In this document: piece after piece, positions 6,770 through 58,479 of the stretch
Position numbering within the stretch: position 1 is the first letter of the stretch
How the letters are laid out: each line of letters begins with the position of its first letter
Origin: Saprospira sp. CCB-QB6
GTDB lineage: Bacteria > Bacteroidota > Bacteroidia > Chitinophagales > Saprospiraceae
DNA: 64,000 nt
Reading direction: 5' to 3'
Assembly (NCBI RefSeq): GCF_028464065.1
Contig: NZ_CP116808.1
Span: forward strand, 1,263,886 to 1,327,885
Program-made: the position numbers and the translations under genes
Notes under the pieces: generated by a model
What the model saw: the letters and a program-made list of their open reading frames with translations, nothing else
Told to the model about the DNA's origin: nothing
Database searches by the model: none

Positions 6770-6878
6770 TACTAGCATCTAGAAACATCTAAGAGGTGCC
6801 TTAGTGGACAAGTTGTGGGTCCCTTCTCACCTGCACCCCAGGCCCTTATTTTATCTATCTATTTTAAATTATTAAGCT

Positions 6879-7226: not shown

Positions 7227-7260
7227 GCAATATTTCTTTGAGATGAATACTTCGGTATTC

Positions 7261-7309: not shown

Positions 7310-7323
7310 TTGAACTTGAGTGT

Positions 7324-8256: not shown

Positions 8257-8278
8257 AGAGTTTAATTTATTTAGTGTA

Positions 8279-9088: not shown

Positions 9089-9205
9089 ATTTTAAGCTTG
9101 AAAAAGGATGTGCTATCAAAAAAAGCAGAATATCTCTTATCTTCCCTTGAGGATGAAAATTACAAGGATGTTAAGACTCTCTAAATATAGCAAAAAATCA
9201 AACTT

Positions 9206-9736: not shown

Positions 9737-9741
9737 GTAAG

Positions 9742-10557
9742 ATGCTAAAATCCTGGACCTATAAGGAGCAAGGCCTAGATGCCAAAGTAGAACTCTTTCA
9801 CGATCATATTCTTTGGACCACGCCCCTCGAACAGCAGTATCTTTCTTTTGAAAAAGCTCTCGAACGGCCCGAACCCATTGGCCCTCTTTGGATAGATGCC
9901 GAACTACTAGATTATCTGCAAGTTTTACTAGCTCGCGAAACCCTGCCCCCTGCTGCCGACCTGATTTTTGCCTTTTATAAAGGCCTCCAAAGCCATCGCC
10001 TAGCCGATCAAACTTATTTTTGGCCCAAAGAAGGCGATACCCAACTCCAATTGCAGTTTTCAAAGCAAGGATTAGTGCTTCTAGAAGAAGGCCCTTACCA
10101 AATTAAGGTTTTGGCCGCCCAAAGACTCTGGCATTTTTATCTACAAGGCATCAATATGCCAGGCCTGCCCCTCAACGAACGCCGAAAATGGCGGGGCCAA
10201 ATCCAACATCAACTCCGCTGGCCCCAATTAGCGCCCCCTTTTGTCCTGCTCGATTATGATCGCCTTCCCCTAAAACGCTATGAGGCCCAAGACGAAAATG
10301 GCGAGCTCTACTTTCTCGCCCTAAATCAAGACCACGCCCTATTGGGCCAAGGCAAAGGCCAAGACTGCCGAGAAGAAAAACGTAGCTATGAACGCCTGAT
10401 TCGAGAGGGCGCCAAAGGCCTCCCCCACTGCCTTGCCGCCTACTGGCCCATGCTGCTCAACTTACTAGAAACGATGCGCCTAGAGGGCCAATTCCCCAGC
10501 CGAGAAGAAGATAAACCCTATGAAGGTCCCGCTCCAGGACAAGCCCCTCCCGCCTAA
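9742..10557 (+). CDS. Hypothetical protein
   Basis: 271-aa ORF starting 6 bp after the previous stop. No motifs recognised. Confidence 0.45.
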   Translation: MLKSWTYKEQGLDAKVELFHDHILWTTPLEQQYLSFEKALERPEPIGPLWIDAELLDYLQVLLARETLPPAADLIFAFYKGLQSHRLADQTYFWPKEGDTQLQLQFSKQGLVLLEEGPYQIKVLAAQRLWHFYLQGINMPGLPLNERRKWRGQIQHQLRWPQLAPPFVLLDYDRLPLKRYEAQDENGELYFLALNQDHALLGQGKGQDCREEKRSYERLIREGAKGLPHCLAAYWPMLLNLLETMRLEGQFPSREEDKPYEGPAPGQAPPA

Positions 10558-10579
10558 TTTTTCCTGAGATTTTTTTCTT

Positions 10580-10699
10580 TTTTGGGGCTGCCCCGCCCTG
10601 CGGGCGGGTCGGGCTGTTGCGCAGCTCGCTATTCGCTCGGCCCTGCGCCAGCAAGCTGGCTGGGTCTGGCGCTGCGCGCCACTGCTCCATCCCTCAGCC
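10580..10699 (+). repeat. GC-rich modular repeat copy D (alpha-type), followed at 10704-10724 by hairpin CTGTGGGTT-TTC-AACCCACAG
   Basis: TTTTGGGGCTGCCCCGCCCTGCGGGCGGGTCGGGCTGTTGCGCAGCTCGCTATTCGCTCGGCCCTGCGCCAGCAAGCTGGCTGGGTCTGGC...CCACTGCTCCATCCCTCAGCC. Confidence 0.8.
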
Positions 10700-10829
10700 G
10701 ATGCTGTGGGTTTTCAACCCACAGCGATAAGGTTATGGCTGCGCCATATTTATTATTGAGGGATAAACCCTCAAGAAAAAGGACCAAAATACCGCCCCCT
10801 GAACAAGTTCCTCAATCAAATCAATCAAC

Positions 10830-11897
10830 ATGAAATGGATCAACCGTATCCGCAAAGCCTTTGAGGCCCTGCTCGAAGAAGATATTGAGAATGATTATGT
10901 AGATGATGGCCGCCCTTTTCGGGTTTTGGCCCAAGAACGCTCCTTTTTGCCCAATTCGGCTAAAGGAGATTTTAGGTTGTACCGCCTGCATCAAAGCTTT
11001 TGCGCTTGCTGGTACGAGCTGCTGGTCGTCCGCTCCGATGATGGCAACCTCCGCTATGAGCTCCCCGGCTGGGGCCGAGCCGTAGCCGTTAGTCCCGATA
11101 AAAGCAAATTGCTAGCCGCCAGAAATAAACAACTCGGCATTTTTAATGCGGCCACTGGCCAGATGATTGGCGAAGAAAAAACCCTAGATGCCTTTATTGA
11201 TTTTCTCCTCTGGCTACCCAATGAGCAAATTGCCGCCACCGATGGAGAGAAAATCTATTTGCTGGACCAAGAACTAGAGCTGCAAGCCATTATTCACGAT
11301 CCTATCCGCAAAGGGGGATTTATTGCAGGTATGCAGCTGGGGCAAGCCCCAGCTGAAGTCATTATTCTCGACTTTAATCACCAACAACTTCGCAGCATTG
11401 ACCTGCGCTCTGGGAGCATCCTCCAAGAAAGTGAGGCCCAATATGCCGAGCAACTATTTCGACAAGATGACCGGCTTTGGACCGCCGTAGTTAATGGCAC
11501 ACAACTCCAAGAAATTCGCTTTTATGGTCTAGAAAAACTAGATGAAAAATATGCGCTCCCTTTTAGAGGCAAAAAGGGCATCCGCTTCGCCAATCAACCG
11601 CCTACGGATATTAGCTATCATCATTGGACCTCTTTGCCGGCCCTCTCTCCAGAAGAACAATTTCTTTTGGTCAATGATAATGCAGGCCTGCTCTGGCTAC
11701 TCGATGCCCATACAGGCGACCACCGCAGAACCTTTTCGCCCAAAATTCTGCCCTATGTATATGCCGCCCTTTGGCTCAATGAAGAAGAATTTGTGGTCCT
11801 TTTAGAGGATGGATTTATTGCTAAGATGAATATCCGATCTAAATCCCTTATGTTTAAACATCAAGATTTCGATCCTCAGCGGCAACGCTTTTTCTAA
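10830..11897 (+). CDS. Hypothetical protein
   Basis: 355-aa ORF. No motifs recognised. Bracketed by repeat copies D and E. Confidence 0.45.
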   Translation: MKWINRIRKAFEALLEEDIENDYVDDGRPFRVLAQERSFLPNSAKGDFRLYRLHQSFCACWYELLVVRSDDGNLRYELPGWGRAVAVSPDKSKLLAARNKQLGIFNAATGQMIGEEKTLDAFIDFLLWLPNEQIAATDGEKIYLLDQELELQAIIHDPIRKGGFIAGMQLGQAPAEVIILDFNHQQLRSIDLRSGSILQESEAQYAEQLFRQDDRLWTAVVNGTQLQEIRFYGLEKLDEKYALPFRGKKGIRFANQPPTDISYHHWTSLPALSPEEQFLLVNDNAGLLWLLDAHTGDHRRTFSPKILPYVYAALWLNEEEFVVLLEDGFIAKMNIRSKSLMFKHQDFDPQRQRFF

Positions 11898-11906
11898 AGC
11901 CATTAG

Positions 11907-12039
11907 AGGAGCGAAGCGACTGGCCTAGCGATGTGCAGCAGTGGCGCGCAGCGCCAGACCCAGCCAGCTTGCTGGCGCAGGGCCGAGCGAATAGCGAGCT
12001 GCGCAACGTAGCGCCTGCCGTAGGCAGGAGGCCCCAAAA
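11907..12039 (-). repeat. GC-rich modular repeat copy E (beta-type, minus orientation)
   Basis: GGAGCGAAGCGACTGGCCTAGCGATGTGCAGCAGTGGCGCGCAGCGCCAGACCCAGCCAGCTTGCTGGCGCAGGGCCGAGCGAATAGCGAGCTGCGCAACGTAGCGCCTGCCGTAGGCAGGAGGCCCCAAAAC. Confidence 0.8.
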
Positions 12040-12078
12040 CAGACAGACAAAAAAGCCTCACCCAACAATTAGAAGTTT

Positions 12079-15000
12079 ATGCAAAAAAAAGCAACAGAAG
12101 CGCAGTTCTTCTTTTCTCAACTGCTCAAGCTACAGCAAGTAGATCAACCTTTGGGGGCCAAATATCAGGCATTGGATGCCATTTTGGTCCAGCTATTTTT
12201 ACAATTGACCGAAAAAGAGCGGCTACATTTTAGTGATCGCTCGGCCCGAATTGCCTTTTTATCGCATAAGGAGGATTTGAGTCGTTCTGTACAATGGCGG
12301 ATTTATCAGATTATCAAGCGGGCGCGATGGATTCGCAGAAAGGAGCTGGATCCTACGGCTGGGCAATATGCCTCGGCCCTAAAAACTGTGGCCTTTGCCA
12401 TTGCGGCCCTTTGTCATGTTCCTTTGCCCGAAGAATTGCGGGCCTATTTGCCCACAGATGAAGAGGAGGACCAAGAAGATCGCAATCCGTTTCCCTTAAA
12501 AGAAGGGATTATTGAGCAGCTCAAAGTGGTGGTTTTGCAAATTGATGCCGCTCAAGAGCTCATCATTTGCCAGCCTTATGGAGAAGAATATACCGATCAG
12601 CTGCGGTTGCGTTATAATGTGCCTGAGATTAACGCCCAGTTTAATAAGACGATCGAGTTGATGCAAGATCATTTTCCTTCTGGGGCCATTTTACAATTGG
12701 TCAATGTCTTGGTAGAAGAATCGGGGATTTTGTTGCCCAAGCGCATCATTTTAGAGCCCGACTACTTGGTCGATGTGACCAGCATAGCCGAATGTTTTCA
12801 GCCGCAGGGCGCTTCGCCCTATTTGTTTTTGCTCAAAAAGTTTGCAAGCTATGAAAATAGCCTGCCCCTGATGTTGGGAAATATTGCCAACCGCTTTTTG
12901 GACCTCTTGAGCAAGAACCCCAAATTAGATTTTCAGGAAGAGTTTAAGAAGCTTTTTAGCCTCAATCCCTTGGGCTTTGCCGACTTTAAGGATACGGATA
13001 TTCGCAAGACCTATCATGAGGCCAAAAATCACTTCATCAATCTCCAACATATTATCCTCAATGAGTTTCCCAAGCTGGGCATTGATCGAGATCGCATTTT
13101 GTTGGAGCCCTCTTTTTACTCGGCCCTCTATGGGATTCAGGGTCGTTTGGACCTTTGGCAGCCGCCAGCAGAAGGCGATGATAAGGCCTTAATTGTGGAG
13201 TTGAAGAGTGGCAAAACCTTTATGCCCAATAAATACAATCTTAACCATAACCACTATGTGCAGACCTTGCTCTATGGCTTGCTGACCCAATCGGTTTATC
13301 CCAACTATAAGAGTTTGGCCCATATTCTTTACTCCAAATTGCAAGAGAAACCGCTGCGCCTAGCCCCTAGCACGCAGTTTAAGGAAGATGAGGCCTTGGC
13401 CATTCGCAACCAGATGGTCATTATGGAGCGACAGCTGGCCCAATTGGACCAAAAATCACTGGAAGAATATGGCCTTTTGCATCAATTGGGGCCTGCAATT
13501 TTGCCCAAAGCGAGCGGCTATACCGCCAGAGGATTGGAGGAGTTTGAAAACTGCTTTTCTAATTTAAGCGAGCTGGAACGTCGCTATTTTATGGCCTTTT
13601 GCAGCTTTATTGCCAAGGAACAAATTTTAGCCAAAACGGGAGTTGAAGGAAATGATCGCGCCAATGGGCAAGCGGGACTTTGGCTCAGCCAAAGAGCCGA
13701 TAAAGACGAACATTTTGAGCTTTTGGCTGGCCTAAAGTTGATTGAAAATAATAGCGAAGAGGAACCGCCTATTCTCCGTTTTAAGCGAACGGAGGTTACC
13801 AATCCCCTCGCCAACTTTAGACAGGGAGATATTGCGATTTTGTATCCCGAAATGGGCCAAGAAGACAATGTTTTGGAGCATCAGATTTTTAAAGGCTCTA
13901 TTTCGGAAATCAATGCCGAAGAACTTTCCTTCAAGCTCTATTCGCCCCAATGTAGCGGAGCTGTTTTTGAGGGCCCACAAACTTGGAGTTTAGAGCATGA
14001 TATGCTTGATAAAGGCTTTACAGTCCAATATCAATCGCTCTTCAATTTCATGAATTTCCATAGCGCAAAGCGCCAGCTTTTATTGGGCCAAAGGGCCCCA
14101 CAAGAAAGCAGTGCCCCCAAGAGTCGCGACTTTATGGAGCCCCATTTGGGCCAAGACCAAAAGCGCATTCTCAACAAGGCCTTGGATGCCCAAGACTACT
14201 TTTTGTTGGTGGGCCCTCCAGGCACGGGCAAAACCAAATTCATGTTGGCCCAAATGGTCGAATATCTGCACCGCAACAGCCAAGAAAACATCTTACTTTT
14301 GGCCTATACCAACCGAGCAGTCGATGAAATTTGCGAGGCGATTGAAGAAGTGGGCATAGACGACTATCTGCGGATGGGCAGCCGCTATTCTTGCGATCCT
14401 CGCTTTGAGCAGCGCATGTTTTCGGTCCAAACAGAGCAGGTAGATAGCCGCAAAGATCTTAGAGCGACCATAGAAAAGCATCGGGTTTTTGTGTCTACGG
14501 TTTCTACCATGCTCAACCGCCCGCTTTTGCTCAAGCTCAAGCAGTTTAATACAGCCATTATTGATGAAGCTTCACAAATTTTGGAGCCGATGCTGGTTGG
14601 ACTACTCCCCCATTTTCAGCGCTTTGTTTTGATTGGCGATCATAAGCAATTGCCCGCCGTAGTGTTGCAAGATAAGGAGCAATCAGCGGTTAGTGATGAG
14701 CTTTTGCAAAGCATTGGCTTGCGCAATCGCCGCAATTCGCTCTTTGAGCGCTTGTTTGAACAGGCCCAAAAAGAGGCTTGGACTTGCTGCTACGATCAGT
14801 TGCAGCATCAGGGGCGGATGCATGCCGATATTTCCCGCTTTCCTAGCCAATTTTTCTATGATAATAAGTTGCTAGAGCTGCCCGAAGATAATCCCGTGGG
14901 AGCTTGGCAGCAAGCGCCCCTCCCCTTTGCCGCCAAGGCCGATGCCCCTCGCTTAGAGCAGGCTTTGGCCCAGCATCGTCTGCTGTTTATTCCCAGCCAA

Positions 15001-15462: not shown

Positions 15463-15514
15463 TTTTGATCCCTTTATTTTATCCCTCTAGTAGTTAATTA
15501 CTAGGGGGATATTT

Positions 15515-15676
15515 TTTTGGGGCCTCCTGCCTACGGCAGGCGCTACGTTCCGCAGCTCGCAGGTCTGCTCGGCCCTTCGCCGCCTGCGGCGGCTCGGTCT
15601 GGCCCTGCGGGCCACTGCTGCACATCGCTAGGCCGTTTGGCCTGCGGCCATGGGCTGCAGGTTTCAACCTACAGGC
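15515..15676 (+). repeat. GC-rich modular repeat copy F (beta-type) plus trailing hairpins GGCCTGCGGCC and CTGCAGGTTTCAACCTACAG
   Basis: TTTTGGGGCCTCCTGCCTACGGCAGGCGCTACGTTCCGCAGCTCGCAGGTCTGCTCGGCCCTTCGCCGCCTGCGGCGGCTCGGTCTGGCCCTGCGGGCCACTGCTGCACATCGCTAGGCC. Confidence 0.8.
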
Positions 15677-16157: not shown

Positions 16158-16279
16158 CGGCCTAGCGATGCGGCGGGGTGGCGCAAAGCGCCAGACCCAG
16201 GCGGCAAAGCCGCCGCAGGGCCGAGCAGACCTGCGAGCCCCAAAGCGTAGCGCCTGCCGTAGGCAGGAGGCCCCAAAAC
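16158..16279 (-). repeat. GC-rich modular repeat copy G (beta-type, minus orientation)
   Basis: GGCCTAGCGATGCGGCGGGGTGGCGCAAAGCGCCAGACCCAGGCGGCAAAGCCGCCGCAGGGCCGAGCAGACCTGCGAGCCCCAAAGCGTAGCGCCTGCCGTAGGCAGGAGGCCCCAAAAC. Confidence 0.8.
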
Positions 16280-26439: not shown

Positions 26440-26587
26440 GTCCAAGCGGGCCAAAGGCCCGCCGGCCTAGCGATGTGCAGCAGTGCGGCGCAGCCGCAGA
26501 CCAAGGCCGTCAGGCCGCAGGGCCGAGCAGACTTGCGAGCTGCGAAACGTAGCGCCGACGAGCGTAGCGAGGCGGAGGCCCCAAAAC
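26440..26587 (-). repeat. GC-rich modular repeat copy I (beta-type, minus orientation)
   Basis: GGCCTAGCGATGTGCAGCAGTGCGGCGCAGCCGCAGACCAAGGCCGTCAGGCCGCAGGGCCGAGCAGACTTGCGAGCTGCGAAACGTAGCGCC...GGCGGAGGCCCCAAAAC. Confidence 0.8.
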
Positions 26588-35730: not shown

Positions 35731-35878
35731 TTTTGGGGCCTCCGCAGCAAAGCTGCGGCGCTACGCTTTGGGGCTCGCAAGTCTGCTCGGCCCTTCGCTT
35801 TTTCGCTACGCTCAAAAGCTCGGTCTGGCCTGCGGCCACCCCGCCGCATCGCTAGGCCAAGGCGGCTGCGCCGCCTCC
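35731..35878 (+). repeat. GC-rich modular repeat copy L (beta-type)
   Basis: TTTTGGGGCCTCCGCAGCAAAGCTGCGGCGCTACGCTTTGGGGCTCGCAAGTCTGCTCGGCCC...GGTCTGGCCTGCGGCCACCCCGCCGCATCGCTAGGCCAAGGCGGCTGCGCCGCCTCC. Confidence 0.8.
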
Positions 35879-36925: not shown

Positions 36926-37071
36926 GGCTGGGCGGGGAGCGCCAATGGCCTAGCGATGTGCAAGGGTGGCCGTCAGGCCAGACCGAGGCGCAAAGCGCCG
37001 AAGGGCCGAGCAGAACTGCGAGCCCTGCAACGTAGCGCCGCAAGGCGAAGCCGCAGCGGAGGCCCCAAAAA
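36926..37071 (-). repeat. GC-rich modular repeat copy M (beta-type, minus orientation)
   Basis: GGCCTAGCGATGTGCAAGGGTGGCCGTCAGGCCAGACCGAGGCGCAAAGCGCCGAAGGGCCGAGCAGAACTGCGAGCCCTGCAACGTAGCGCCGCAAGGCGAAGCCGCAGCGGAGGCCCCAAAAA. Confidence 0.8.
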
Positions 37072-41143: not shown

Positions 41144-41277
41144 TTTTTTGGGGCCTCAGCTGCGGCTTCGCCTTGCTGCGCTACGCTTTGGGGCTCGCAG
41201 GTCTGCTCGGCCCTTCAGGCTACACTTCGTTTCGCCTTCGGTCTGGCCTAACGGCCACCCCGCCGCATCGCTAGGCC
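41144..41277 (+). repeat. GC-rich modular repeat copy N (beta-type), left arm of a tight inverted pair
   Basis: TTTTTTGGGGCCTCAGCTGCGGCTTCGCCTTGCTGCGCTACGCTTTGGGGCTCGCAGGTCTGCTCGGCCC...GGTCTGGCCTAACGGCCACCCCGCCGCATCGCTAGGCC. Confidence 0.8.
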
Positions 41278-41414
41278 GCTCCACGGTCTTTTTGCTCTTG
41301 GCATTCTTCTTCGGCCCTCCATTCATTCCGTTCAATTCATGAGGGTTTTACCCCTCATTCATATATCATTGCGAAGCAATACCACTCTAGCTGTAGGTTT
41401 CAACCTACAGTAAA
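41278..41414. repeat. Conserved core between inverted pair N/O (TTCATGAGGGTTTTACCCCTCATTCATATAT...GCAATACCACTCTAGCTGTAGGTTTCAACCTACAG)
   Basis: About 80% identical to the core 58326-58479 between pair T/U. Contains hairpins ATGAGGG-TTTTA-CCCCTCAT and CTGTAGGTT-TC-AACCTACAG. Confidence 0.7.
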
Positions 41415-45813: not shown

Positions 45814-45960
45814 GGGCCGCTAGGCCCTAAATGGCCTAGCGATGTGTAGGGGTGGCCCGCAGGGCCAGACCGAGCCAGCTTGCTGCCGAAGGGCCGAGCG
45901 AAGAGCGAGCCCCGGAACGTAGCGCCCTGAGCCCTTGAGGGCGAGGGGAGGCCCCAAAAA
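45814..45960 (-). repeat. GC-rich modular repeat copy Q (beta-type, minus orientation), right arm of the pair; overlaps the 3' end of CDS 45820..48000
   Basis: GGCCTAGCGATGTGTAGGGGTGGCCCGCAGGGCCAGACCGAGCCAGCTTGCTGCCGAAGGGCCGAGCGAAGAGCGAGCCCCGGAACGTAGCGCCCTGAGCCCTTGAGGGCGAGGGGAGGCCCCAAAAAC. Confidence 0.8.
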
Positions 45961-48000
45961 CACCAAATCTAACTCCAATACCTTCAACTCAATCCGTCGA
46001 TTATGCGCTCGGCCCTCTTCGGTTTCATTAGTTGCCGCAGGTTCATTTTCGCCATAGCCCTTCGCCTTCATTCGATCGGGCGAAACACCATGTTCTTGTA
46101 AATAATCGACCACAGCTTTTGCTCGATTATTTGACAAGAGTTGGTTGGCCGCCAAGCTTCCTCGGCTATCCGTATGTCCACCAATTTCTATTTTCATCTT
46201 GGGGTATTGAGCCAATATAGCCAATAAACGATCGAGCTCCTGCCGCCCCTCTTCTTTCAAGTTATACTTATTGGTATCGAAGAAAATATTGTTGAGGCGA
46301 ATTTTAGCCCCCTTTTTCATGGGGTGCAAATACAAATCCACCAACACCTCTTTGTATTCCAATTCCTTGGGCAAATCAATAGACTTACTCTCAGAGAGGA
46401 AATTGGCCTTTTCTGCCAAGAAGCCATAATTGGTCCCCATAGGCAAAACTAAACTATATTCTCCTGTCTTAGGATTAGAGCGGGCAATCCCTGAAGGCCC
46501 TTCTTTGCCCAAGCTCTCATATTGGACCGATGCGGCCAAGGGCGTGCTATCTAAAGCATTAAAGACCCGACCACGGACCAAAAGAACGGCTTCTGGACGA
46601 GCCGCTTCTGGCAGTTTCACTTTCATAATATCTGTTTTGCCAATAGCGTCTTTACCTGAGGAGAAAAAGGCATATTCGCCAGAAGCAGGAAGTGAATAAT
46701 AGGCATCAAAATCAGGCGTATTCAGCTTTGGGCCCAAATTTAAGGGCTCCGACCAATTGGTCCAACTATCATCCAATCTGCGGCTCACAAACATATCGGC
46801 ATGTCCATAACCAGGACGGCCAGAAGTAGCAAAATAAAGAGTTTTGCCATCTGCAGCCAAATAAGGAGAAAGTTCTGAAGCCGCAGTATTAAGCATATCG
46901 CCAGTATGCATAGGGACGGTCCAACTACCATCCTCATTTCTGAAAGAAACATAGATATCTTTAGCCCCTTCCGTATCATCTCGCTCAATTGCTAGAACCA
47001 AAGTTTTCCCATCATTGGCCAAATTATACTCGCCATACTTATTATTGTTATAATAGTCTTCTATCACTAAAGCTTCTGGAAAAGACCAACGATCCTCCCC
47101 CTCTTTATGCGAAAGAGAAAGGCCCTTATCTGATCCCCCATCTTTTTTATACACATTGAGGACCAACAAAGTTTGCCCGTCAGGGGTCACCGAACAAATA
47201 GAGTTATTCCGTTCATTGTTGATTGGACCACCAATATTTTTGGCAGGCAAAAACTGCCCATCTTCGCCCAATTGCGCACACCAAACATCTTGGTTCTTCT
47301 TCTCTCCTAAATTACCAGGATGATCTTGGCGAGTATAATAAAGTAATTGGCCATCAGGAGAAATTAAAGGGGCCAATTCATGGGCCTCACTGTTAATCGC
47401 AGTTCCCAAGTTTATAGGGTCACCTACCTCATTGGCTCCAGCTACTGTTTTTATCTCTACTTGATAGTCGACTTCCTCCTCAGAAATACCAATGGCATCA
47501 ATCTGATTATAACCATAAACCATACGTGTATTCAATTGAAGCTGAATAGCAGCAACCAAAAAGTCGGTGCTTTCTTCCAATATAAATTTACTTAGCTTCC
47601 CTGGCTTATCCTTATTTTCTTTGCTCAATTCTGGCGTTTGCTGAAAGACCAAACGCACTTCCCCCTTACTGCCATAAGCGACAATCTTTTCTATCGCTCC
47701 TGGATTAAAAGCCTCAGAAACCGTAATCTGCTTAACCTTCTGTGGAACAGAAAATCCCACCTTGATAAATTCTCCATCTCCATTAGACTTTGATTTAGGA
47801 GTCCAAGCACAAGGTGTACCTGAAGTTGTATTGGCAGGGATTACAGAAGGACTACCCAAAGCCCCTCGAGCTCCATATTGCCCTTTGTGTTTAGAAGAAC
47901 TAAACTCTGAAGATTTCTCTAAAACGGAAGAAGCCCATTGTACAGACTGTGCAAAGAGCAACTGAGGAATAAAACAACTGAGGATAATTAAATAACGCAT
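45820..48000 (-). CDS. OmpA-family protein with TolB-like (PD40) beta-propeller repeats; the C-terminal ~45 codons are read from repeat copy Q
   Basis: Signal peptide MRYLIILSCFIPQLLFAQ. PD40-like blades (SPDGQLLYYT, TPDGQTLLV, AADGKTLYFATSGRPGYGHADMFVS). OmpA motif NIFFDTNKYNLKEEGRQELDRLLAIL...GHTDSRGS...NQLLSNNRAKAV...NRRIELKVLE. The ORF then continues as LDLVFLGPPLALKGSG...ARPFRA, a translation of the repeat. Confidence 0.7.
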   Translation of the reverse strand: MRYLIILSCFIPQLLFAQSVQWASSVLEKSSEFSSSKHKGQYGARGALGSPSVIPANTTSGTPCAWTPKSKSNGDGEFIKVGFSVPQKVKQITVSEAFNPGAIEKIVAYGSKGEVRLVFQQTPELSKENKDKPGKLSKFILEESTDFLVAAIQLQLNTRMVYGYNQIDAIGISEEEVDYQVEIKTVAGANEVGDPINLGTAINSEAHELAPLISPDGQLLYYTRQDHPGNLGEKKNQDVWCAQLGEDGQFLPAKNIGGPINNERNNSICSVTPDGQTLLVLNVYKKDGGSDKGLSLSHKEGEDRWSFPEALVIEDYYNNNKYGEYNLANDGKTLVLAIERDDTEGAKDIYVSFRNEDGSWTVPMHTGDMLNTAASELSPYLAADGKTLYFATSGRPGYGHADMFVSRRLDDSWTNWSEPLNLGPKLNTPDFDAYYSLPASGEYAFFSSGKDAIGKTDIMKVKLPEAARPEAVLLVRGRVFNALDSTPLAASVQYESLGKEGPSGIARSNPKTGEYSLVLPMGTNYGFLAEKANFLSESKSIDLPKELEYKEVLVDLYLHPMKKGAKIRLNNIFFDTNKYNLKEEGRQELDRLLAILAQYPKMKIEIGGHTDSRGSLAANQLLSNNRAKAVVDYLQEHGVSPDRMKAKGYGENEPAATNETEEGRAHNRRIELKVLELDLVFLGPPLALKGSGRYVPGLALRSALRQQAGSVWPCGPPLHIARPFRA

Positions 48001-48161
48001 ATAATTATATAATTTTTGTGGAGAATTGGCCCGAAGATAGGAACTCCCTATCTAGTTCTGCTCACTTTATACCCGATAAAGCTAAAAGTTAGTTCCCCCT
48101 ACAAAAAAAGGCCCAGCCTATAAAAGACTGAGCCCACTATCAAACTTCAAAGACTGAAAGA

Positions 48162-49619
48162 TTATTTGTTAAAAACATAGCTATAATCTCCACTAAAGTT
48201 CTCATAAAAACCATCCAACTTCACTTCTCCCTCTGCCGCTATAATAGCCTTAATGAACTCTTCTTCTGTGCTCACTTTTTGGCCATTCACCGCCTCAATA
48301 ATAAAGTCGCGATCCATATTCGTATTTTCCATCAAACTGCCCGAACGAATTTTAGTGACAATCAAGCCCTTTTCTACATCCAAGCGGCGACGCTCTTTGC
48401 TATTCAACTGTCGAAGATCTACCCCCAACTCTTCCAAAATAGTCGCCTCATTTCTGAAACGCTCCGAACGAGGCTTGTCCTCTATCGTATTCCCATTAGA
48501 CGCATTTTTAAGCTCAACCTTGGTCTCATAAGATTTCCCCTCTCGGAAATAAATGATGGCCACCTCTTGCCCAGGTCGGAATAGCCCCACCTGCTCCTGA
48601 AGCTCCGGAGAACTCTTCACTTTCACATTGTTCACATGCGTGATAATATCCCCAGACTTTAATCCCCCCTCTTCTGCTGCACTCCCCGAATTGACTCGGT
48701 CCAAATAAACCCCGTCCAAAGAGTTTAAGGCCATTTCCTTCGCCAACTCATTACTGACGTCCCGAATCGTCACGCCCAAAAAGCCTCTTTGTACCTCACC
48801 ATATTCAATTAGGTCTTTGGCCACCTTACGCGCCAAATTCACAGGCACCGCAAAAGAATACCCCTCATAACGCCCCGAACGCGTGATAATAGCCGTGTTG
48901 ATCCCCACCAAACGACCCTCCGCATCAATCAAAGCGCCTCCACTGTTACCCGGATTTACCGCAGCATCTGTCTGAATAAAAGACTCAATAGAATAAGTCC
49001 CCTCCAAAATATCAATGTTGCGCCCCTTGGCCGATACAATCCCCGCCGTCACCGTAGACGTCAAATTAAAAGGATTTCCAACAGCCAAGACCCACTCACC
49101 AACCTGCAGCTGATCCGAATTGGCAAAACCCAATACAGGCAACTCACGCCCATCCAATTCCTCTTCCTCCACCTTGATTACGGCCAAATCCGTAGACGGA
49201 TCCGTCCCAATAACCTTCGCCTTGTATTTTCGACGATCATTGAGGGTCACCTCAACCTGCCGAGCCCCTTCCACTACGTGGTTGTTCGTCAACATATACC
49301 CATCCTTACTGATAATCACCCCAGAACCCGAAGCCCCAGAACCAAAATCAAATAATTCCTCATTTCCGCCATTAGACTGAATATGAACCACCGAAGGACG
49401 AGCCAAATTGGCCGCCGCCTTAAAATCCTTGGGCCGATCCGTTAACGGACTCCCATAAGGACTATCATTATAATAGGTCGCCTGATATTTAGGGACAAAT
49501 TCCCGCACAATGACTTCTTGCCCGGCAGGACGCTCTTTTTCTAGACAGGTTTTATAAACCCCCAAGGTCAATCCCGAACTCAAAATCGAAACCGCCAATA
49601 GGATCATTCCATTTTTCAT
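48162..49619 (-). CDS. Do/HtrA/DegP-family periplasmic serine endopeptidase (trypsin domain plus 2 PDZ)
   Basis: Catalytic Ser motif GNSGGALID. His region YMLTNNHVVEGA. Two PDZ-like C-terminal domains (GVYLDRVNSGSAAEEGGLKSGDIITHVNN...; GLIVTKIRSGSLMENT...). Signal anchor MKNGMILLAVSILSSGLTLG. Confidence 0.85.
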   Translation of the reverse strand: MKNGMILLAVSILSSGLTLGVYKTCLEKERPAGQEVIVREFVPKYQATYYNDSPYGSPLTDRPKDFKAAANLARPSVVHIQSNGGNEELFDFGSGASGSGVIISKDGYMLTNNHVVEGARQVEVTLNDRRKYKAKVIGTDPSTDLAVIKVEEEELDGRELPVLGFANSDQLQVGEWVLAVGNPFNLTSTVTAGIVSAKGRNIDILEGTYSIESFIQTDAAVNPGNSGGALIDAEGRLVGINTAIITRSGRYEGYSFAVPVNLARKVAKDLIEYGEVQRGFLGVTIRDVSNELAKEMALNSLDGVYLDRVNSGSAAEEGGLKSGDIITHVNNVKVKSSPELQEQVGLFRPGQEVAIIYFREGKSYETKVELKNASNGNTIEDKPRSERFRNEATILEELGVDLRQLNSKERRRLDVEKGLIVTKIRSGSLMENTNMDRDFIIEAVNGQKVSTEEEFIKAIIAAEGEVKLDGFYENFSGDYSYVFNK

Positions 49620-49750
49620 AGGCTATATATAGATTAGGTGCTGTTTTAGAAGATCTGATTTTAAACTTTAAAATCCTAACTGAAGTTCATACTTTTGCAG
49701 CTTTGAAGAGAAAAATTAGCAGAAGTTTAGTACAAAAGGTCTTTTCTGCT

Positions 49751-49898
49751 TTTTTTGGGCCTCCCCTCGCCCTCAAGGGCTCAGGGCGCTACGTTCCGGG
49801 GCTCGCTCTTCGCTCGGCCCTTCGCCAGCAAGCTGGCTCGGTCTGGCCCTGCGGGCCACCCCTACACATCGCTAGGCCATGATGGCCTTCGGCCATCC
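49751..49898 (+). repeat. GC-rich modular repeat copy R (beta-type) plus trailing hairpin ATGATGGCCTTCGGCCATCC
   Basis: TTTTTTTGGGCCTCCCCTCGCCCTCAAGGGCTCAGGGCGCTACGTTCCGGGGCTCGCTCTTCGCTCGGCCCTTCGCCAGCAAGCTGGCTCGGTCTGGCCCTGCGGGCCACCCCTACACATCGCTAGGCC. Confidence 0.8.
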
Positions 49899-49970
49899 TT
49901 TAAAATCCGCAGAAGCCCAAACGCTAAATAACGCCCCTACTTCCACCCAATTAAAAAAGCCTATTGAGCT

Positions 49971-50252
49971 ATGAGAGAAAAACCAAACCCCTATGAGGGC
50001 ATGAGCCGCAAAGAACGGCGAGAAGCAGCCTTAGATCAAGTCTTTGGCAAAAATAGAAAAGAATATATGGGCAATATTTGGGGCTGGAAATTCACCTACT
50101 TCGGCCTCGCCTTCCTCTTACTCGTCTTTGCCTTTGCTGCCTATGGCGTCTGGACCGGCAAAATCGACCTCAAAAAACAACAGTTCGAAGCAACCCCCTC
50201 TCGCCATATCCAACAAAATAGCTTGCACCATCAAAAAGATACAGCAAACTAG
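49971..50252 (+). CDS. Small hypothetical membrane protein
   Basis: 93 aa with one predicted transmembrane segment WGWKFTYFGLAFLLLVFAFAAYGVW. No motif recognised. Confidence 0.35.
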   Translation: MREKPNPYEGMSRKERREAALDQVFGKNRKEYMGNIWGWKFTYFGLAFLLLVFAFAAYGVWTGKIDLKKQQFEATPSRHIQQNSLHHQKDTAN

Positions 50253-50295
50253 CTAGCCGCCTCCTTTTTTTATCCTTCTTTAACATTGCTTTAAA

Positions 50296-51093
50296 ATGTC
50301 TGCCATTCCTTTCTATAAATATCAAGCAGCGGGCAACGATTTTGTCATCTTTGATAACCGAGAGGCTAAGCTCTCCTTTTCTGCCCAAGAAATTGCCCGC
50401 ATCTGCCACCGACAGTTTGGCATCGGAGCCGATGGCATTATGCTGCTCGAAACAGCCCCAAAACTAGACTTTAAAATGGTCTACTTTAATGCCGATGGCG
50501 CCCCCAGTAGCATGTGCGGCAATGGCGGAAGAGCCCTGGTCGCCTTTGCTAAGCATTTGGGCCTGTTTGAAAATAGCTGTAGCTTTATGGCCGTGGATGG
50601 CCTCCACCATGCCAAGGTCTTAGGCCCCAATTATATCGCCCTAGAAATGCAGGATTATAAAGATTTATATCTAGCCGACTCTCACTGCTTTTTAGATACA
50701 GGCTCTCCCCATCATATCGAATTTGTCGCCCAATCCGAAGCCATTGATGTGGTCCAAGAAGGCCGAAAAATTCGCTATGCCGCCCCCTATGGAGAAAAAG
50801 GCGCTAATGTCAATTTTGTAGAAGTCCTCAGCCCCACAGAACTACAAATTGCTACCTACGAAAGAGGGGTCGAAAACGAAACTTTGGCCTGCGGCACTGG
50901 CGTTACCGCCGCCGCTATCGCCCACTTTCTACAACATGGCCCAAAAACAAAAGGCCATCACCGCATTGAGGTCCGCGCCAAAGGCGGAGACCTAGCCGTG
51001 GAATTTGACTACCAAGAAGATATTAAAAATATTTGGCTGTTGGGCCCCGCCCAAGCCGTCTTTCAAGGCCAATACTTCGGCCTCCAAAAATAA
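50296..51093 (+). CDS. dapF: Diaminopimelate epimerase
   Basis: The N-terminus FYKYQAAGNDFVIFDN contains the DapF signature GNDF. Catalytic Cys motifs SMCGNGGR and ACGTGVTAAA. 265 aa. Confidence 0.85.
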   Translation: MSAIPFYKYQAAGNDFVIFDNREAKLSFSAQEIARICHRQFGIGADGIMLLETAPKLDFKMVYFNADGAPSSMCGNGGRALVAFAKHLGLFENSCSFMAVDGLHHAKVLGPNYIALEMQDYKDLYLADSHCFLDTGSPHHIEFVAQSEAIDVVQEGRKIRYAAPYGEKGANVNFVEVLSPTELQIATYERGVENETLACGTGVTAAAIAHFLQHGPKTKGHHRIEVRAKGGDLAVEFDYQEDIKNIWLLGPAQAVFQGQYFGLQK

Positions 51094-51102
51094 AAGTGAA
51101 TC

Positions 51103-51459
51103 ATGGGAAAAGATACCAAAAAAGTTGTCCAAGAAAATAATATTCAACTAACCGTTGGCCTCAATGCCGATCGCACCCCCGTCAAAATTGAATGGGAAGC
51201 CTCCGATAGCCAAAACGGCCCCGAAGAATGCAAAGCCATGCTGATCTCACTCTTCGATAAAGCGCATAAAGATACCCTCAAAATTGATCTCTGGACCCTC
51301 GATATGCAGGTCAACGAAATGGACCGCTTTATGTACCAAACCCTACGCGGCCTAGCCGATACTTACTATCGCGCTACCAATAACCAACAACTCAGCAACG
51401 ATTTTATGCGCTTTGTCCAATACTTTGGCGAAAAAACAGAAACCCTACCTAAAAAGTAG
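51103..51459 (+). CDS. Small cytoplasmic protein, possibly gliding-motility-associated GldC-like
   Basis: 118 aa. Size, the hydrophilic KIEWEASDSQNGP...DLWTLDMQVNEMDRFMYQTL pattern and the Bacteroidota context resemble what I recall of GldC. This is a memory-based call, not verified. Confidence 0.3.
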   Translation: MGKDTKKVVQENNIQLTVGLNADRTPVKIEWEASDSQNGPEECKAMLISLFDKAHKDTLKIDLWTLDMQVNEMDRFMYQTLRGLADTYYRATNNQQLSNDFMRFVQYFGEKTETLPKK

Positions 51460-51478
51460 ATCCGAAAGCAAAGCCAAA

Positions 51479-51511
51479 GGCCCAACTCCTTATTGGAGTT
51501 GGGCCTTTTTT
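51479..51511. terminator. Hairpin GGCCCAACTCC-TTATTG-GAGTTGGGCC plus T6, bidirectional terminator
   Basis: Read directly. Lies between the convergent 51103..51459 (+) and 51540..52199 (-). Confidence 0.6.
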
Positions 51512-51539
51512 ATTCCTAACACTTCAAATAAAAGCTAAA

Positions 51540-52199
51540 TTAGGAGGCTATGGCTGTTTGTATGGTAGCATCTATATCTTCTACATACTCTTCAAATACG
51601 GCACTTATTTGTATAACATCTGGAAATGTTAAATCCGAGGCCTGATCATTGTAATGCAGCACTTTATTCCTCTTTAAAACAATACTTTGGATCAAGTCTT
51701 TATGCTGAATATATGAAGAAACCTTATCCAAATCTATCCCCATATAAGAAAATGCTACCTTCGTCCTATCTGGGTTTCCCGAAATGAAATCATCAAAACC
51801 ATTTTCATTTTCTTGTAGCAAGAATATCGCTTCTGCATTTTCCCTTTTTTCTAAATCCTTCGTTGCTTTATTTACAGCTGCTTTAGAAAACTTATTTTCT
51901 TTATCTCTTGATGCAATTACGATAACATTTTTAGGGAGATTTGCATTAGCCACCCTTTGCTGATACTCTTTATATATCTCTGATAAAACGTCTTTCAAAT
52001 AGCTTTCCAAACAAACACAAAGTTGTACTAATGCCGACTTCGTCAGAAAGTTAGCATGTTCTATGACAAACTGCTCAGCTCCTGAGCCACTACTCTGGCC
52101 AAGTTGTACCTTATGGCTGTCATTTACAAAGGTCCTTAAATCATTTAAATTGTCTATATATCTTTTGTAGGATGTTGTTTTTAGGTTACTCATAGCCAT
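51540..52199 (-). CDS. HEPN-like protein (Rx4H motif; MAE_28990/Swt1-like by context), second gene of a DUF262-HEPN module
   Basis: 219 aa, predicted all-helical. C-terminal region IQSIVLKRNKVLHYNDQ gives R-x4-H, the HEPN RNase signature. Overlaps the upstream DUF262 gene by 14 bp. About 35% GC. Confidence 0.45.
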   Translation of the reverse strand: MAMSNLKTTSYKRYIDNLNDLRTFVNDSHKVQLGQSSGSGAEQFVIEHANFLTKSALVQLCVCLESYLKDVLSEIYKEYQQRVANANLPKNVIVIASRDKENKFSKAAVNKATKDLEKRENAEAIFLLQENENGFDDFISGNPDRTKVAFSYMGIDLDKVSSYIQHKDLIQSIVLKRNKVLHYNDQASDLTFPDVIQISAVFEEYVEDIDATIQTAIAS

Positions 52200-53217
52200 C
52201 TATTTCTGAGAGTTTTGAAATCCATAGCTCACGACGTTTTAGGATAGAGCTTTTTTTCTGTGTTCCCCCTGATAGTTTTTGTTGGAACTTAGGCATTTGA
52301 CAAAGCTGATTAAATTTTTCTTGAATTTCCTCCTTATGCGCTAAAGCCCAATCGCGTCTCCCTGTCAAAGACCACATGATTAGGTCATAATGTGCATTAC
52401 TATGTCTAGGCTTCTCTTTGGTTACATCCATAAAAGGTTGTTTAAATACCTGTACACAAGTATCTAAAGTCTCGGTAAAGAGTTTCTTTAACTCTTTAAT
52501 TTTGGTTGCTGAAAGATTCTGATTTTCAGCCATACACTGATCCAACCACTTAGCATGGTTACTATCATAAGTCTTTAAATCCTTTTGTAGGGCGAAGTAC
52601 CGTAAAACTAGCTCTTCATCCCTTCGATCATCCTTATCCTTGGCTAACTGAAAAGCAGGAAGACCCTGATCGGCTAATTCTTTCAGTAGAGAGTCAAAAC
52701 TTCCAGGGTAAATTGCATGTCGAATCTCTTGATCACTCAGCTTAACAGCTCCTTGGTTCAATCGAGCAAAAATCTCATTCACTAGCCCTTTGGGGTTGTT
52801 CTTTCTCAACACCACACAACGAATAGTTGTATTTTCTAAATCTGCCTGATAAGTGCCTAACTCTGAGAACTTCTTATTATTCAATTCTGGATATACAGTC
52901 AATCCTTCTAAAGCAAATTCGTCCGCAAAAAATCGTCGTATAGTAGTAATTCTTTGTACACCGTCAATCACTTCATGGCTTCCATCCTCTCGCTCTGCAA
53001 AATAACAAGCAGGTAAAGGAATACGCATTAAGCAAGATTCGATGAATTTAGAGCTCCGCCCTTCACCATCTTTATCCCATTTGTATTTTCGCTGAAAGTC
53101 GGGATCTAAAATTAGTTTTCCATCTCGGACCCTATCATTTAAAGTCTCAAAAGGATAATCAATAGGATAAAGGTTCAAGACCTTCATATTCTCTTCCGTG
53201 TTTGTATTACTGGCCAT
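52186..53217 (-). CDS. DUF262 (GmrSD N-terminal / ParB-Srx-like NTP-binding) domain protein
   Basis: N-terminal LYPIDYPFETL...LDPDFQRKYKWDKD (QR.YxW box) and EVIDGVQRITTI (DGQQR box), both hallmark DUF262 motifs. No DUF1524/HNH C-terminal domain is recognisable. 343 aa. AT-rich codon usage. Confidence 0.7.
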   Translation of the reverse strand: MASNTNTEENMKVLNLYPIDYPFETLNDRVRDGKLILDPDFQRKYKWDKDGEGRSSKFIESCLMRIPLPACYFAEREDGSHEVIDGVQRITTIRRFFADEFALEGLTVYPELNNKKFSELGTYQADLENTTIRCVVLRKNNPKGLVNEIFARLNQGAVKLSDQEIRHAIYPGSFDSLLKELADQGLPAFQLAKDKDDRRDEELVLRYFALQKDLKTYDSNHAKWLDQCMAENQNLSATKIKELKKLFTETLDTCVQVFKQPFMDVTKEKPRHSNAHYDLIMWSLTGRRDWALAHKEEIQEKFNQLCQMPKFQQKLSGGTQKKSSILKRRELWISKLSEIDGYE

Positions 53218-53264
53218 TAGTTGATGTTTTTATATTTAAACGTATAGCAATATACAAAAAAAAA

Positions 53265-54407
53265 TCATTCCCGCCAATCTTCTACCCGCCAATGTTGGGC
53301 AGGCCGCAAAAGCGGCAGTTCTCTATATATTAAGGTATTGGCCCGCCAAGAAACATCTTGGCCCGCCCACTGCCCAAATAAAAAGAGTTGATCGCTAGTT
53401 TGACGATAATATAAACGAGCCTGAAGGCTATCGCCCTGCAAATCATAAAGGGCAAGTCCATCTTCGGGCAGATAGCGCAGCCGATAACTCTTTTGCCTCC
53501 TCCCCTGCTGCATGATCCAATAGCCCCGACGATGAATATAGAATTCTTGTCCATCTTCTAAGACATAAGCCCCATGCAAAGGCGGCCTAGTCTCCATATC
53601 ATCATTCCAATGCCGCCGATGCCGATAAGGCCAAAGTATATTTAAGCCTATACATAAAAGAACTAGCGTTTTTATCCACCACTTTCGCCCCCCTAAAAAA
53701 GAAGGCCCCAAAGAAGCCCTTGCCGCCAAAGCCTGCCCAGTAGACCAAGCCCAAAGCCCCTTTAATCTGGGCCAAAGAAGATATAAGGCCATCCATAAAA
53801 GCCCAGCCGAATATAGCTTGACGTTGATGTCAAAACTTATATTGATAAGCAAGACCTGCCCCATCACCCCTGCCGCTAACAAAGCCCCTAATGCTCGACT
53901 AGGCCGGTAGAATAATGCTAAAGCCGCCAAGATTTCTACTATACCCGTCCAAAAACTATAGGTCCAAGAACTGCCCATGACCGACCAAAAAGCTAAATCC
54001 TTCTCGATATACCCCAATGGCTGATAAAGGGTGTTGGGCTCTGGCAAAAAGAATTGCTGTTTGAGCAGCTTGTCTAGACCATAACGCCCCAATTGCATCC
54101 CTAAGTAATAGACGATGCCCAATTGCAAATAAGACTGAAACTGCTGACTCCAGTTTTTTTTGTCCCATAACAATAGCAAGGCCGCCAAGACCGCCAACCA
54201 AATACTATGTAAATAAAAGCCCGTACTATCCGAAGCTAAACGATAATAGCCCCCTTCTATCCCCAAAAGCTCCCCACAGGCGCTATAAAAAGGAGCCAAG
54301 CCCTCTGCCCAAAAAGCAGAATATGCAGGACATAAGGGCTGCTCAATCGGAGCCGTTAGGGCAAAGAGAATTAAGTATATAGTTGTCCAACGATAAAGCA
54401 TCTGCAT
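53265..54407 (-). CDS. Polytopic membrane protein, hypothetical (N-terminal 8-9 transmembrane segments, about 120-aa soluble C-terminal domain)
   Basis: Hydrophobic segments throughout residues 1-260. C-terminal Arg/Tyr-rich soluble region. Ends 47 bp upstream of the DUF262 gene on the same strand, so possibly co-transcribed. Confidence 0.45.
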   Translation of the reverse strand: MQMLYRWTTIYLILFALTAPIEQPLCPAYSAFWAEGLAPFYSACGELLGIEGGYYRLASDSTGFYLHSIWLAVLAALLLLWDKKNWSQQFQSYLQLGIVYYLGMQLGRYGLDKLLKQQFFLPEPNTLYQPLGYIEKDLAFWSVMGSSWTYSFWTGIVEILAALALFYRPSRALGALLAAGVMGQVLLINISFDINVKLYSAGLLWMALYLLWPRLKGLWAWSTGQALAARASLGPSFLGGRKWWIKTLVLLCIGLNILWPYRHRRHWNDDMETRPPLHGAYVLEDGQEFYIHRRGYWIMQQGRRQKSYRLRYLPEDGLALYDLQGDSLQARLYYRQTSDQLFLFGQWAGQDVSWRANTLIYRELPLLRPAQHWRVEDWRE

Positions 54408-54428
54408 TTTTTTTAGCTTTTCTATCTA

Positions 54429-54731
54429 ATCCACGGAGTCAATCTGAGATGTCCGTAGACCTCCGTGGCCGCCACGGAGCCAATCTGAGATGTCCGTAGA
54501 CCTCCGTGGCCACCACGGAGCTAATCCGAGATGTCCGTAGACCTCCGTGGCCGCCACGGAGCCAATCTGAGATGTCCGTAGACCTCCGTGGCCACCACGG
54601 AGCCAATCTGAGATGTCCGTAGACCTCCGTGGCCACCACGGAGCTAATCCGAGATGTCCGTAGACCTCCGTGGCCGCCACGGAGCTAATCCGAGATGTCC
54701 GTAGACCTCCGTGGCCACCACGGAGCCAATC
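54429..54731. repeat. 41-bp tandem array of about 7.4 units: ATC(T/C)GAGATGTCCGTAGACCTCCGTGGCC(G/A)CCACGGAGC(C/T)A
   Basis: Each unit has a CTCCGTGG-CC(G/A)-CCACGGAG hairpin (8-bp stem) and an ATCTGAGAT palindrome. Units differ only at 3 positions and there are no spacers. Starts about 22 bp upstream of the start codon of 53265..54407. Confidence 0.85.
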
Positions 54732-54974
54732 CATCCGAATGGTCGCAGTCCGTGGCGGATTCTAAGCCCCTCTTTTGATTTTCCTATGGTCCCCCTAATC
54801 AAAAAATAAAAGGTGCTTAGGCCCTAAAATAAGCGATCCTTTATTTAGAAGGACAAAAAAAGGCTCCAAACTAAGGTTTGGAGCCTTTCTGGGCCATCAA
54901 ATTCTTGAGCATAATAAGCTTGAGCGAGGAATTAGGCCAGCCAATAATAGCGAAAGCGGCAAGAAGGCCCGCAG

Positions 54975-55196
54975 CCCACAACAAGCCCTTTAGGCTGCAG
55001 TTCGACGGCCAGAGGGAGTAACCGATTTGCAGCAGGCGGCGCAGCCGCCTTGGCCGAAGGCCAAACGGCCCAGCGCTGCGGAGGGGTGGCCGTAAGGCCA
55101 GACCAAAGCCGCCGCAGGCGGCTGCAGGGCCGAACAGACCTGTGAGCCCCGCAGCATAGCGGCGGCCAGCTTTGCTGGCCGCGGGCCCCAAAAAAT
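54975..55196 (-). repeat. GC-rich modular repeat copy S (gamma-type, minus orientation), preceded by a GCAGTTCGACG..AGGGAGTAACC module
   Basis: GGCCCAGCGCTGCGGAGGGGTGGCCGTAAGGCCAGACCAAAGCCGCCGCAGGCGGCTGCAGGGCCGAACAGACCTGTGAGCCCCGCAGCATAGCGGCGGCCAGCTTTGCTGGCCGCGGGCCCCAAAAAA. Confidence 0.8.
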
Positions 55197-55231
55197 CGCC
55201 CTTATCCTCGGTCATTTTCTTCAAAAGTGCT

Positions 55232-58195: not shown

Positions 58196-58325
58196 ATTTT
58201 TTTGGGGCCCGCGGCCAGCAAAGCTGGCCGCCGCTATGCTGCGGGGCTCACAGGTCTGTTCGGCCCTGCAGCCGCCTGCGGCGGCTTTGGTCTGGCCTAC
58301 GGCCCCCCCTCCGCAGCGCTGGGCC
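58196..58325 (+). repeat. GC-rich modular repeat copy T (gamma-type), left arm of a tight inverted pair
   Basis: TTTTTTTGGGGCCCGCGGCCAGCAAAGCTGGCCGCCGCTATGCTGCGGGGCTCACAGGTCTGTTCGGCCCTGCAGCCGCCTGCGGCGGCTTTGGTCTGGCCTACGGCCCCCCCTCCGCAGCGCTGGGCC. Reverse complement of copies A and S. Confidence 0.8.
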
Positions 58326-58479
58326 GCTCCACTTTTTTTGTTGCTTCAAATCTTTAGGCTTCGGCCTTTTGGTCCTCCCTTTTTAGTTCACTTCATGAGG
58401 GGGTTAGCCCTCATTCATATATTATTCTGCAGCAATGCCATTCCTTGCTGTAGGTTTTAACCTACAAGCACAGATAGCA
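58326..58479. repeat. Conserved core between inverted pair T/U (TTCATGAGGGGGTTAGCCCTCATTCATATAT...GCAATGCCATTCCTTGCTGTAGGTTTTAACCTACAAG)
   Basis: Homologous to 41278-41414. Confidence 0.7.

Follow-up and report, generated by a model that had tools for sequence, protein, structure and literature searches.

A horizontally acquired DUF262-HEPN gene pair of Saprospira sp. CCB-QB6, a probable two-gene defence cassette of the PD-T4-2 type

Operons combining a gene of a DUF262 protein with a gene of a small HEPN protein were listed by Anantharaman et al. in 2013 ('Ribo L-PSP-HEPN ... operon with ParB'; PMC3710099), and one of them, the PD-T4-2 system of Escherichia coli ECOR65 described by Vassallo et al. 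in 2022, appears in Table S1 of that study as 'DUF262, HEPN' (PMC9519451). HHpred assigned component A of PD-T4-2 to PF03235 (99.7%) and its component B to PF18735 (97.8%) and then to PF18737 (96.9%); the deletion of the system from its native strain ECOR65 restored the plaquing of phage T4, and E. coli K-12 was also protected (PMC9519451). In GmrSD/BrxU and SspE, the DUF262 domain senses DNA features, and the hydrolysis of nucleoside triphosphate (NTP) switches on a nuclease (PMC12065111, PMC10952713). Here, we describe a DUF262-HEPN gene pair in a 64,000-nt stretch of the genome of Saprospira sp. CCB-QB6 (NZ_CP116808.1, 1,263,886-1,327,885), hereafter referred to as the window, in which all positions are 1-based. 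The first-pass annotation of the window took this pairing for an uncharacterised and unnamed one and proposed a candidate novel defence system. While a defence role is the best reading of the pair, the pairing is already known, named and validated as defence under the name PD-T4-2, and no new kind of system is revealed by this locus.

Results of our analysis indicate that the locus is a real, intact, horizontally acquired cassette of defence type; the anti-phage activity of this particular copy we infer. We put at about 0.78 the probability that the region 51517-53266 was acquired horizontally and is a self-sufficient anti-phage cassette of two genes, belonging to the PD-T4-2 type and functioning according to the sensor-effector scheme proposed below. 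The cassette agrees with PD-T4-2 in architecture and Pfam families but is divergent from it. It adds to this type a clean representative from a filamentous marine predator of the Bacteroidota, with insertion boundaries defined to the base pair and with a natural empty site.

The insertion and the two proteins encoded by it

The inserted cassette (51517..53266, minus strand) is 1750 bp long, or 1755 bp with one copy of the repeat that borders it, and is absent from Saprospira grandis DSM 2844, whose DapF is 91% identical to that of the window. In the alignment of the window with the relevant locus of DSM 2844 (L005), window positions 47000-51516 correspond to 6722-11221 and window positions 53267-54445 to 11217-12394 of the latter. 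The difference is a clean indel: DSM 2844 is devoid of 51517-53266 but keeps the rest of the locus, including the gene of a membrane protein located upstream of the pair. Beyond the DUF262 and HEPN genes, the insert is limited to flanks of 23 bp and 49 bp. The alignment of the junctions identified 5-bp direct repeats ATTCC at both sides (left copy 51512..51516, right copy 53267..53271), which are represented by a single copy in the empty site of DSM 2844. The right copy shares bases with the final codon of the membrane gene and with its stop codon, which is TAA in the empty site and TGA in the window. No terminal inverted repeats or transposon-like ends were found on the insert. At the identical site, the cassette is also present in L001-L003, three Saprospira relatives from metagenomes.

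The guanine-plus-cytosine (GC) content of 51517-53266 is 36.3%, the lowest of all 1750-bp stretches in the window (mean 46.7%, standard deviation 3.0), while that of the flanks is 47-51%. The empty site in DSM 2844 and this lowest GC content support the horizontal acquisition of the islet, in agreement with the first-pass annotation, which had also noticed the low GC content but placed the drop at 53220, while the boundary of the indel is at 53266/53267. On the other side, the insert adjoins a resident bidirectional terminator hairpin (51476..51508; 14-bp stem, T runs), which is present also in the empty site of DSM 2844, where it comes directly after the membrane gene. The cassette separates the membrane gene, whose stop codon it follows, from the terminator of that gene; this terminator is now common to the minus-strand cassette and to a convergent, plus-strand gldC-like gene.

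Component A (343 aa; 52186..53217, minus strand) comprises an N-terminal ParB-like DUF262 domain of the NTPase type and a C-terminal all-helical domain. Its sole Pfam match is GmrSD_N/DUF262 (PF03235; 1.1e-22), and it contains the motifs QRKYKW (53077-53094), DGVQR (52951-52965) and FARLN. Pfam detected no DUF1524/HNH match in either protein of the cassette, and component A is without a nuclease domain. Among PADLOC profiles, component A matched NsnA best (1.9e-76) and also PD-T4-2_A (2e-46), the latter with residues 31-328 aligned to profile positions 48-353 of 363. Since both profiles cover the helical C-terminal half of component A, this half corresponds to the domain named ParBDB by Li et al. 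2025. A sequence search of the PDB with the profiles of components A and B gave no match, and only fold comparison succeeded; it indicated BrxU and SspE, and not chromosomal ParB, as the best structural relatives of component A. Homologues of this protein number more than 1100. Those of Flavobacterium, Chryseobacterium, Siphonobacter, Ancylomarina, a Rubrivivax metagenome-assembled genome and Leptospiraceae are 58-65% identical to it, and across phyla the identity is about 60%, with more than 100 invariant columns.

Component B (219 aa; 51540..52199, minus strand) is a HEPN protein that is helical throughout and belongs to the RiboL-PSP-HEPN family; its match to Pfam HEPN_RiboL-PSP (PF18735; 1.1e-13) is well over the curated cut-off. 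It contains the Rx4H motif RNKVLH (51654-51671), and LESYLKD and DDFISGNP are further conserved motifs. The residues of Rx4H, as well as N178, N184 and D185, are invariant among 54 homologues. The Rx4H site of component B and the NTP-binding motifs of component A are both intact. The best structural matches of component B are HEPN toxins of toxin-antitoxin systems (5yep_B, 7ae2_A and 8xdj_A). It belongs to a small subfamily, for which 1.84 billion representative proteins yielded 160 clusters at 50% identity; the members are about 196-202 aa long, and compared to them component B has an extra insert of about 20 residues. A tblastn search of plasmids with component B gave no match. The two genes overlap by 14 nt (ATGGCTATGAGTAA), or by 8 nt if component B starts at the second ATG (52193), which, judging from its relatives, may be the case. 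Accordingly, the first-pass description of two minus-strand genes overlapping by 14 nt, of a DUF262 protein with both characteristic motifs and no DUF1524/HNH, and of a HEPN partner with Rx4H holds, except that the partner belongs to PF18735 and not to the related sister family MAE_28990 named there.

Pairing, mobility and divergence of the two genes

The association of both genes is highly conserved. Eighty metagenomic loci with an orthologue of the DUF262 gene were fetched, and 72 of them had enough downstream DNA; a HEPN gene of the same subfamily is directly downstream in 71 of these and 1.3 kb away in the remaining one. The same arrangement is found in all seven close homologues from viral contigs. 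The overlaps between the A and B genes are mostly of 4-17 nt, the commonest being 11, 8, 4, 14 and 17 nt. All 82 A proteins possess both QRxxxW and DGxQR; of the 82 B proteins, 79 possess Rx4H. In Chryseobacterium, Rubrivivax, Flavobacterium and Siphonobacter, a PF18735 HEPN is encoded by the next gene, which overlaps or abuts the DUF262 gene, and the surroundings of the pair differ in each case. As the distances of A and B proteins correlate (Spearman 0.56), the two genes travel together. One possible case of decay is the locus of Siphonobacter sp. (L090, 8026-8617), where the HEPN sequence following the DUF262 gene is split into two open reading frames (ORFs) of 113 and 80 aa and probably represents a frameshifted, inactivated copy.

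No recurrent third gene was found: among 149 neighbouring ORFs of 21 cassette loci, scored by Pfam and PADLOC families, no family occurs more than two times. Sporadic neighbours include DNA methylases, an ApaLI-like endonuclease, integrases, Fic, ParE, a terminase and many housekeeping genes. The pair is a self-contained unit of two genes only.

Cassettes of this type are mobile. Seven viral contigs encode close homologues, with DUF262 proteins of 51-54% identity and HEPN proteins of the same subfamily. In one of them (L178, 5983-7597; IMG/VR UViG 3300031414_000687), the pair is a moron of a P2-like prophage, inserted between the genes of tail-completion (gpS-like) and baseplate (gpV-like) proteins; loci L175 and L179-L182 were noted alongside it. 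In the Rubrivivax locus, the pair adjoins ParE and an integrase. More distant DUF262-HEPN pairs are present in an E. coli IncF plasmid beside ccdAB and pemIK, in a second IncF plasmid, where the partner is named MAE_28990-family HEPN nuclease by RefSeq, in a 3.9-kb E. coli plasmid, and in a Bradyrhizobium plasmid beside an N6 methylase. Another distant pair (L096, 3916-5686; E. coli 504239, NZ_CP025859.1), with weak PADLOC matches to PD-T4-2_A (1.8e-55) and PD-T4-2_B (1.4e-8), is located in a P2-like prophage between the CI repressor and integrase genes.

No gene of the locus evolves faster within Saprospira than that of the HEPN protein. In the comparison of the window with L002 (5611-6270), the HEPN proteins share 76.7% amino acid identity, as compared to 95.9% for the DUF262 proteins and 89-98% for the products of flanking genes. 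The changes cluster mainly in an insert predicted with low confidence, at about residues 70-135. Diversifying selection or recombination may be responsible for this divergence, and, because the HEPN protein diverges fast and mainly in this region, it may carry specificity or face pressure from phage inhibitors.

The membrane gene, the hairpin arrays and other features

The gene located 47 bp upstream of the pair (53265..54407, minus strand) encodes a multi-pass membrane protein, in which six hydrophobic segments were indicated by hydropathy and which has no Pfam, NCBIfam or PADLOC match. Its ATG at 54407 is not conserved, the relatives having ATA in this position; a conserved ATG at 54401 is probably the start, giving a product of 378 aa. 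Since DSM 2844 possesses this gene (87% amino acid identity) without the pair, it is a resident gene and not a part of the acquired unit. No homologue of it was found beside the pair in the other genomes and loci examined. No terminator was found between the membrane gene and the cassette, and therefore read-through transcription from the former into the latter is possible; this would be the only conceivable link between the cassette and the array described below.

The 5' region of the membrane gene contains a 41-bp tandem hairpin array (54431..54731; 7.3 copies with 95% match according to Tandem Repeats Finder), which is not a part of the system. Its unit holds an 8-bp inverted repeat (CCACGGAG/CTCCGTGG), and the RNA fold of 54408-54800 has a z-score of -8.1 as compared with shuffled sequences. 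The number of copies is two in L002 and L003 and at least 2.3 in L001, where the contig ends, while in DSM 2844 there is one degenerate half-unit. A second 41-bp array, unrelated in sequence, is located at 2666-2935, between convergent genes. Both arrays have a GC stem of 6-8 bp, a 3-nt loop and an AT-richer spacer of about 22-26 nt. Neither solitary copies of either unit within the window, nor Rfam matches over the whole window with both arrays included, nor relevant literature on Saprospira tandem repeats were found. The presence of an array of the same period elsewhere in the window and the variation of copy number at the site of the first array indicate that the 41-bp arrays characterise the intergenic DNA of Saprospira and are independent of the cassette. 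The first-pass annotation was thus right about the existence of the multi-pass membrane gene and of the array, but the former does not belong to the unit, and we found nothing that links the latter with the control of the cassette.

No upstream sequence conserved between cassettes was found. Of 77 cassette loci, whose host taxa were not determined, only 5 have the Bacteroidetes -7 motif TAnnTTTG ahead of the DUF262 start, versus 2.4 expected.

Two other features are located farther upstream. A strong, terminator-like hairpin (54857-54890) is downstream of the histidine ammonia-lyase gene and of a GC-rich repeat, and upstream of an AT-rich stretch that precedes the array; in DSM 2844, about 52 bp take the place of the region 54446-55053, to which this hairpin and the array belong. 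The GC-rich repeat is a dispersed intergenic element of about 100-190 bp, with at least 13 copies of 69-98% identity in the 64 kb and several copies in DSM 2844. They include, among others, 55040-55230, 58198-58326, 15513-15658, 184-320, 41179-41278, 16158-16258, 36944-37040, 35731-35858, 26449-26586, 49787-49895 and 45822-45924. The element resembles repetitive extragenic palindromic (REP) elements or miniature inverted-repeat transposable elements (MITE), gives rise to spurious ORFs with a high content of G, P, A and R, and is the reason for the GC peaks beside the array.

Proposed mechanism, rival explanations and relation to known systems

By analogy with GmrSD/BrxU and SspE, component A could serve as a nucleotide-dependent sensor or switch responding to a sign of infection, with phage DNA or a DNA modification as the likeliest candidate. 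Component B would be the effector, a HEPN RNase that, once released or activated by component A, would cleave RNA and in this way stop the translation of the phage and possibly also of the host. The synthesis of both proteins is coupled translationally via the 8-14-nt overlap of their genes, and the cassette might be transcribed by read-through from the membrane gene, with transcription ending at the resident hairpin.

Several observations weigh against this scheme or against the assignment of the cassette to the PD-T4-2 type. The cassette is solitary in the window, surrounded by housekeeping genes, and no defence island is present there. Our literature search found no mechanistic study of PD-T4-2. 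Component A scores higher on NsnA of the Menshen system than on PD-T4-2_A, and component B did not match the PADLOC PD-T4-2_B profile at E<=1. Neither BLASTP nor hhalign comparisons of the HEPN family of component B with single HEPN proteins associated with E. coli DUF262 proteins gave a significant match, single-sequence templates being too weak here. What joins component B to its E. coli counterparts is Pfam family, fold, motif and gene order only.

The mean pairwise identity is 60% for A proteins and 40% for B proteins, and B is less conserved in 99% of comparisons.

Two of these points have a counterpart on the side of the profiles. NsnA is likewise the top profile for E. coli DUF262 proteins whose partner is a HEPN protein, and thus the NsnA model is broad. 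The PD-T4-2_B model, in turn, is narrow: the DUF262-linked HEPN proteins of L085, L087, L092, L093 and L095 fail to match it, and those of E. coli reach only 4.4e-4 to 1.4e-8. Because of this narrowness, current PADLOC models would miss the clade to which the cassette belongs. As concerns the divergence, a conserved A and a variable B run counter to the common pattern, in which the sensor varies and the effector is conserved, and therefore the assignment of roles could be reversed. The Bacteroidota-centred clade of the cassette might be a subtype with a function of its own, in which DUF262 would be a generic NTP-driven switch, and HEPN would be both the determinant of phage specificity and the effector, its insert at about residues 70-135 contacting a variable phage factor or escaping phage inhibitors. 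We consider such a reversal rather unlikely, but the asymmetry between the conserved DUF262 and the fast-evolving HEPN protein is a usable clue to the phage-sensing component.

The pair could instead be a selfish toxin-antitoxin or addiction module, in which the HEPN toxin is neutralised by the DUF262 protein; an effect on phages would then be a by-product or would not exist at all. The best structural matches of component B, the gene overlap resembling that of toxin-antitoxin operons, and the vicinity of other toxin-antitoxin pairs in plasmid-borne relatives are consistent with this possibility. Known HEPN toxin-antitoxin systems, however, use MNT nucleotidyltransferases as antitoxins and not a ParB-like NTPase of 340 aa, the architecturally identical PD-T4-2 protects its native strain against T4, and the position of the cassette as a moron in P2-like prophages is typical of defence cargo, all of which makes an addiction module improbable. 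We give still less credence to a type IV-like, DNA-acting system, in which DUF262 itself would nick or cleave modified phage DNA and HEPN would be a non-catalytic adaptor or regulator. Although BrxU and SspE are the best structural relatives of component A, and some ParB-like domains are nucleases ('ParB nuclease', PMC3710099), the nuclease of GmrSD, BrxU and SspE resides in the DUF1524 HNH domain, and no such domain is found in the cassette. Moreover, the invariance of Rx4H, N178, N184 and D185 in the 54 homologues and the presence of Rx4H in 79 of the 82 pairs argue for a catalytic RNase.

The first-pass annotation proposed a unit of three genes (membrane protein, DUF262 and HEPN) with phase variation driven by the number of repeats in the 41-bp array. 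All three genes are on one strand with no terminator between the membrane gene and the cassette, and the copy number does vary among relatives (7.3, 2 and about 0.5). Nevertheless, the array precedes a resident gene, which DSM 2844 has without the pair, and the pair occurs elsewhere without such a gene in all loci examined; DSM 2844 lacks a full array, and other carriers of the pair have two copies. The array of the same period between convergent genes at 2666-2935 indicates that the arrays are not promoter-specific. Tracts of contingency loci are typically short, unlike the 41-bp units. We see no support for this model and consider it extremely unlikely. The idea that component A is NsnA of a Menshen system, suggested by its best PADLOC match (1.9e-76), is hardly credible in view of the breadth of the NsnA model and of the neighbours, which are the HEPN gene, the gldC-like gene, dapF and the membrane gene, with neither an NsnB ABC ATPase nor NsnC among them.

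Of the systems with which the cassette was compared, Menshen (NsnABC; Millman 2022; Li et al. 2025) shares with it the composition of component A, a ParB-DUF262 domain followed by a helical C-terminal domain ('ParBDB', PMC12065111), but differs in having the NsnB ABC ATPase and the inPIN-nuclease effector NsnC in place of a separate HEPN protein. We rejected membership in it, the next gene being that of HEPN, followed by the terminator and the convergent gldC-like gene. In the type IV restriction and phosphorothioate-sensing systems GmrSD, BrxU and SspE, DUF262 is fused to a DUF1524 HNH DNase, while here there is no DNase domain and an RNase-type HEPN is encoded separately. A GmrSD-family type IV restriction enzyme was likewise rejected, as neither protein contains DUF1524 and the C-terminal half of component A is all-helical. 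HEPN-MNT toxin-antitoxin systems (e.g., SO_3166/SO_3165) provide the closest solved fold for component B and have the Rx4H motif in common with it, but the partner of component B is a ParB-like DUF262 protein and not an MNT nucleotidyltransferase, which places the pair outside these systems; in addition, component B has extra helices and the conserved motifs LESYLKD and DDFISGNP, in which it differs from HEPN-MNT toxins. The partition function (ParABS), considered as an alternative already in the first-pass annotation, was rejected on the basis of no Pfam match to a helix-turn-helix or ParBc domain, no ParA gene nearby, and the structural relationship with BrxU and SspE.

The closest likeness is to PD-T4-2. 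The E. coli DUF262-HEPN loci included in our comparisons (L092, L093, L094 and L096) are relatives of that system and not PD-T4-2 itself, and the identity of component A with HEPN-partnered DUF262 proteins of E. coli is only about 26-30%. Component B is larger than PD-T4-2_B (219 aa vs. about 165 aa), and the host is a member of the Bacteroidota, Saprospira, while protection against phages is known solely for the ECOR65 system. On the other hand, both are two-gene operons carried by mobile elements as a type, in which component A is a DUF262 (PF03235) protein of about 340-360 aa with QRxxxW, DGxQR and FxxxN motifs and no DUF1524/HNH, and component B, encoded directly downstream, is a small HEPN protein of the PF18735/PF18737 type, here PF18735, with the Rx4-6H motif. 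The match of component A to the PD-T4-2_A profile over nearly its full length (2e-46) is in line with this common architecture.

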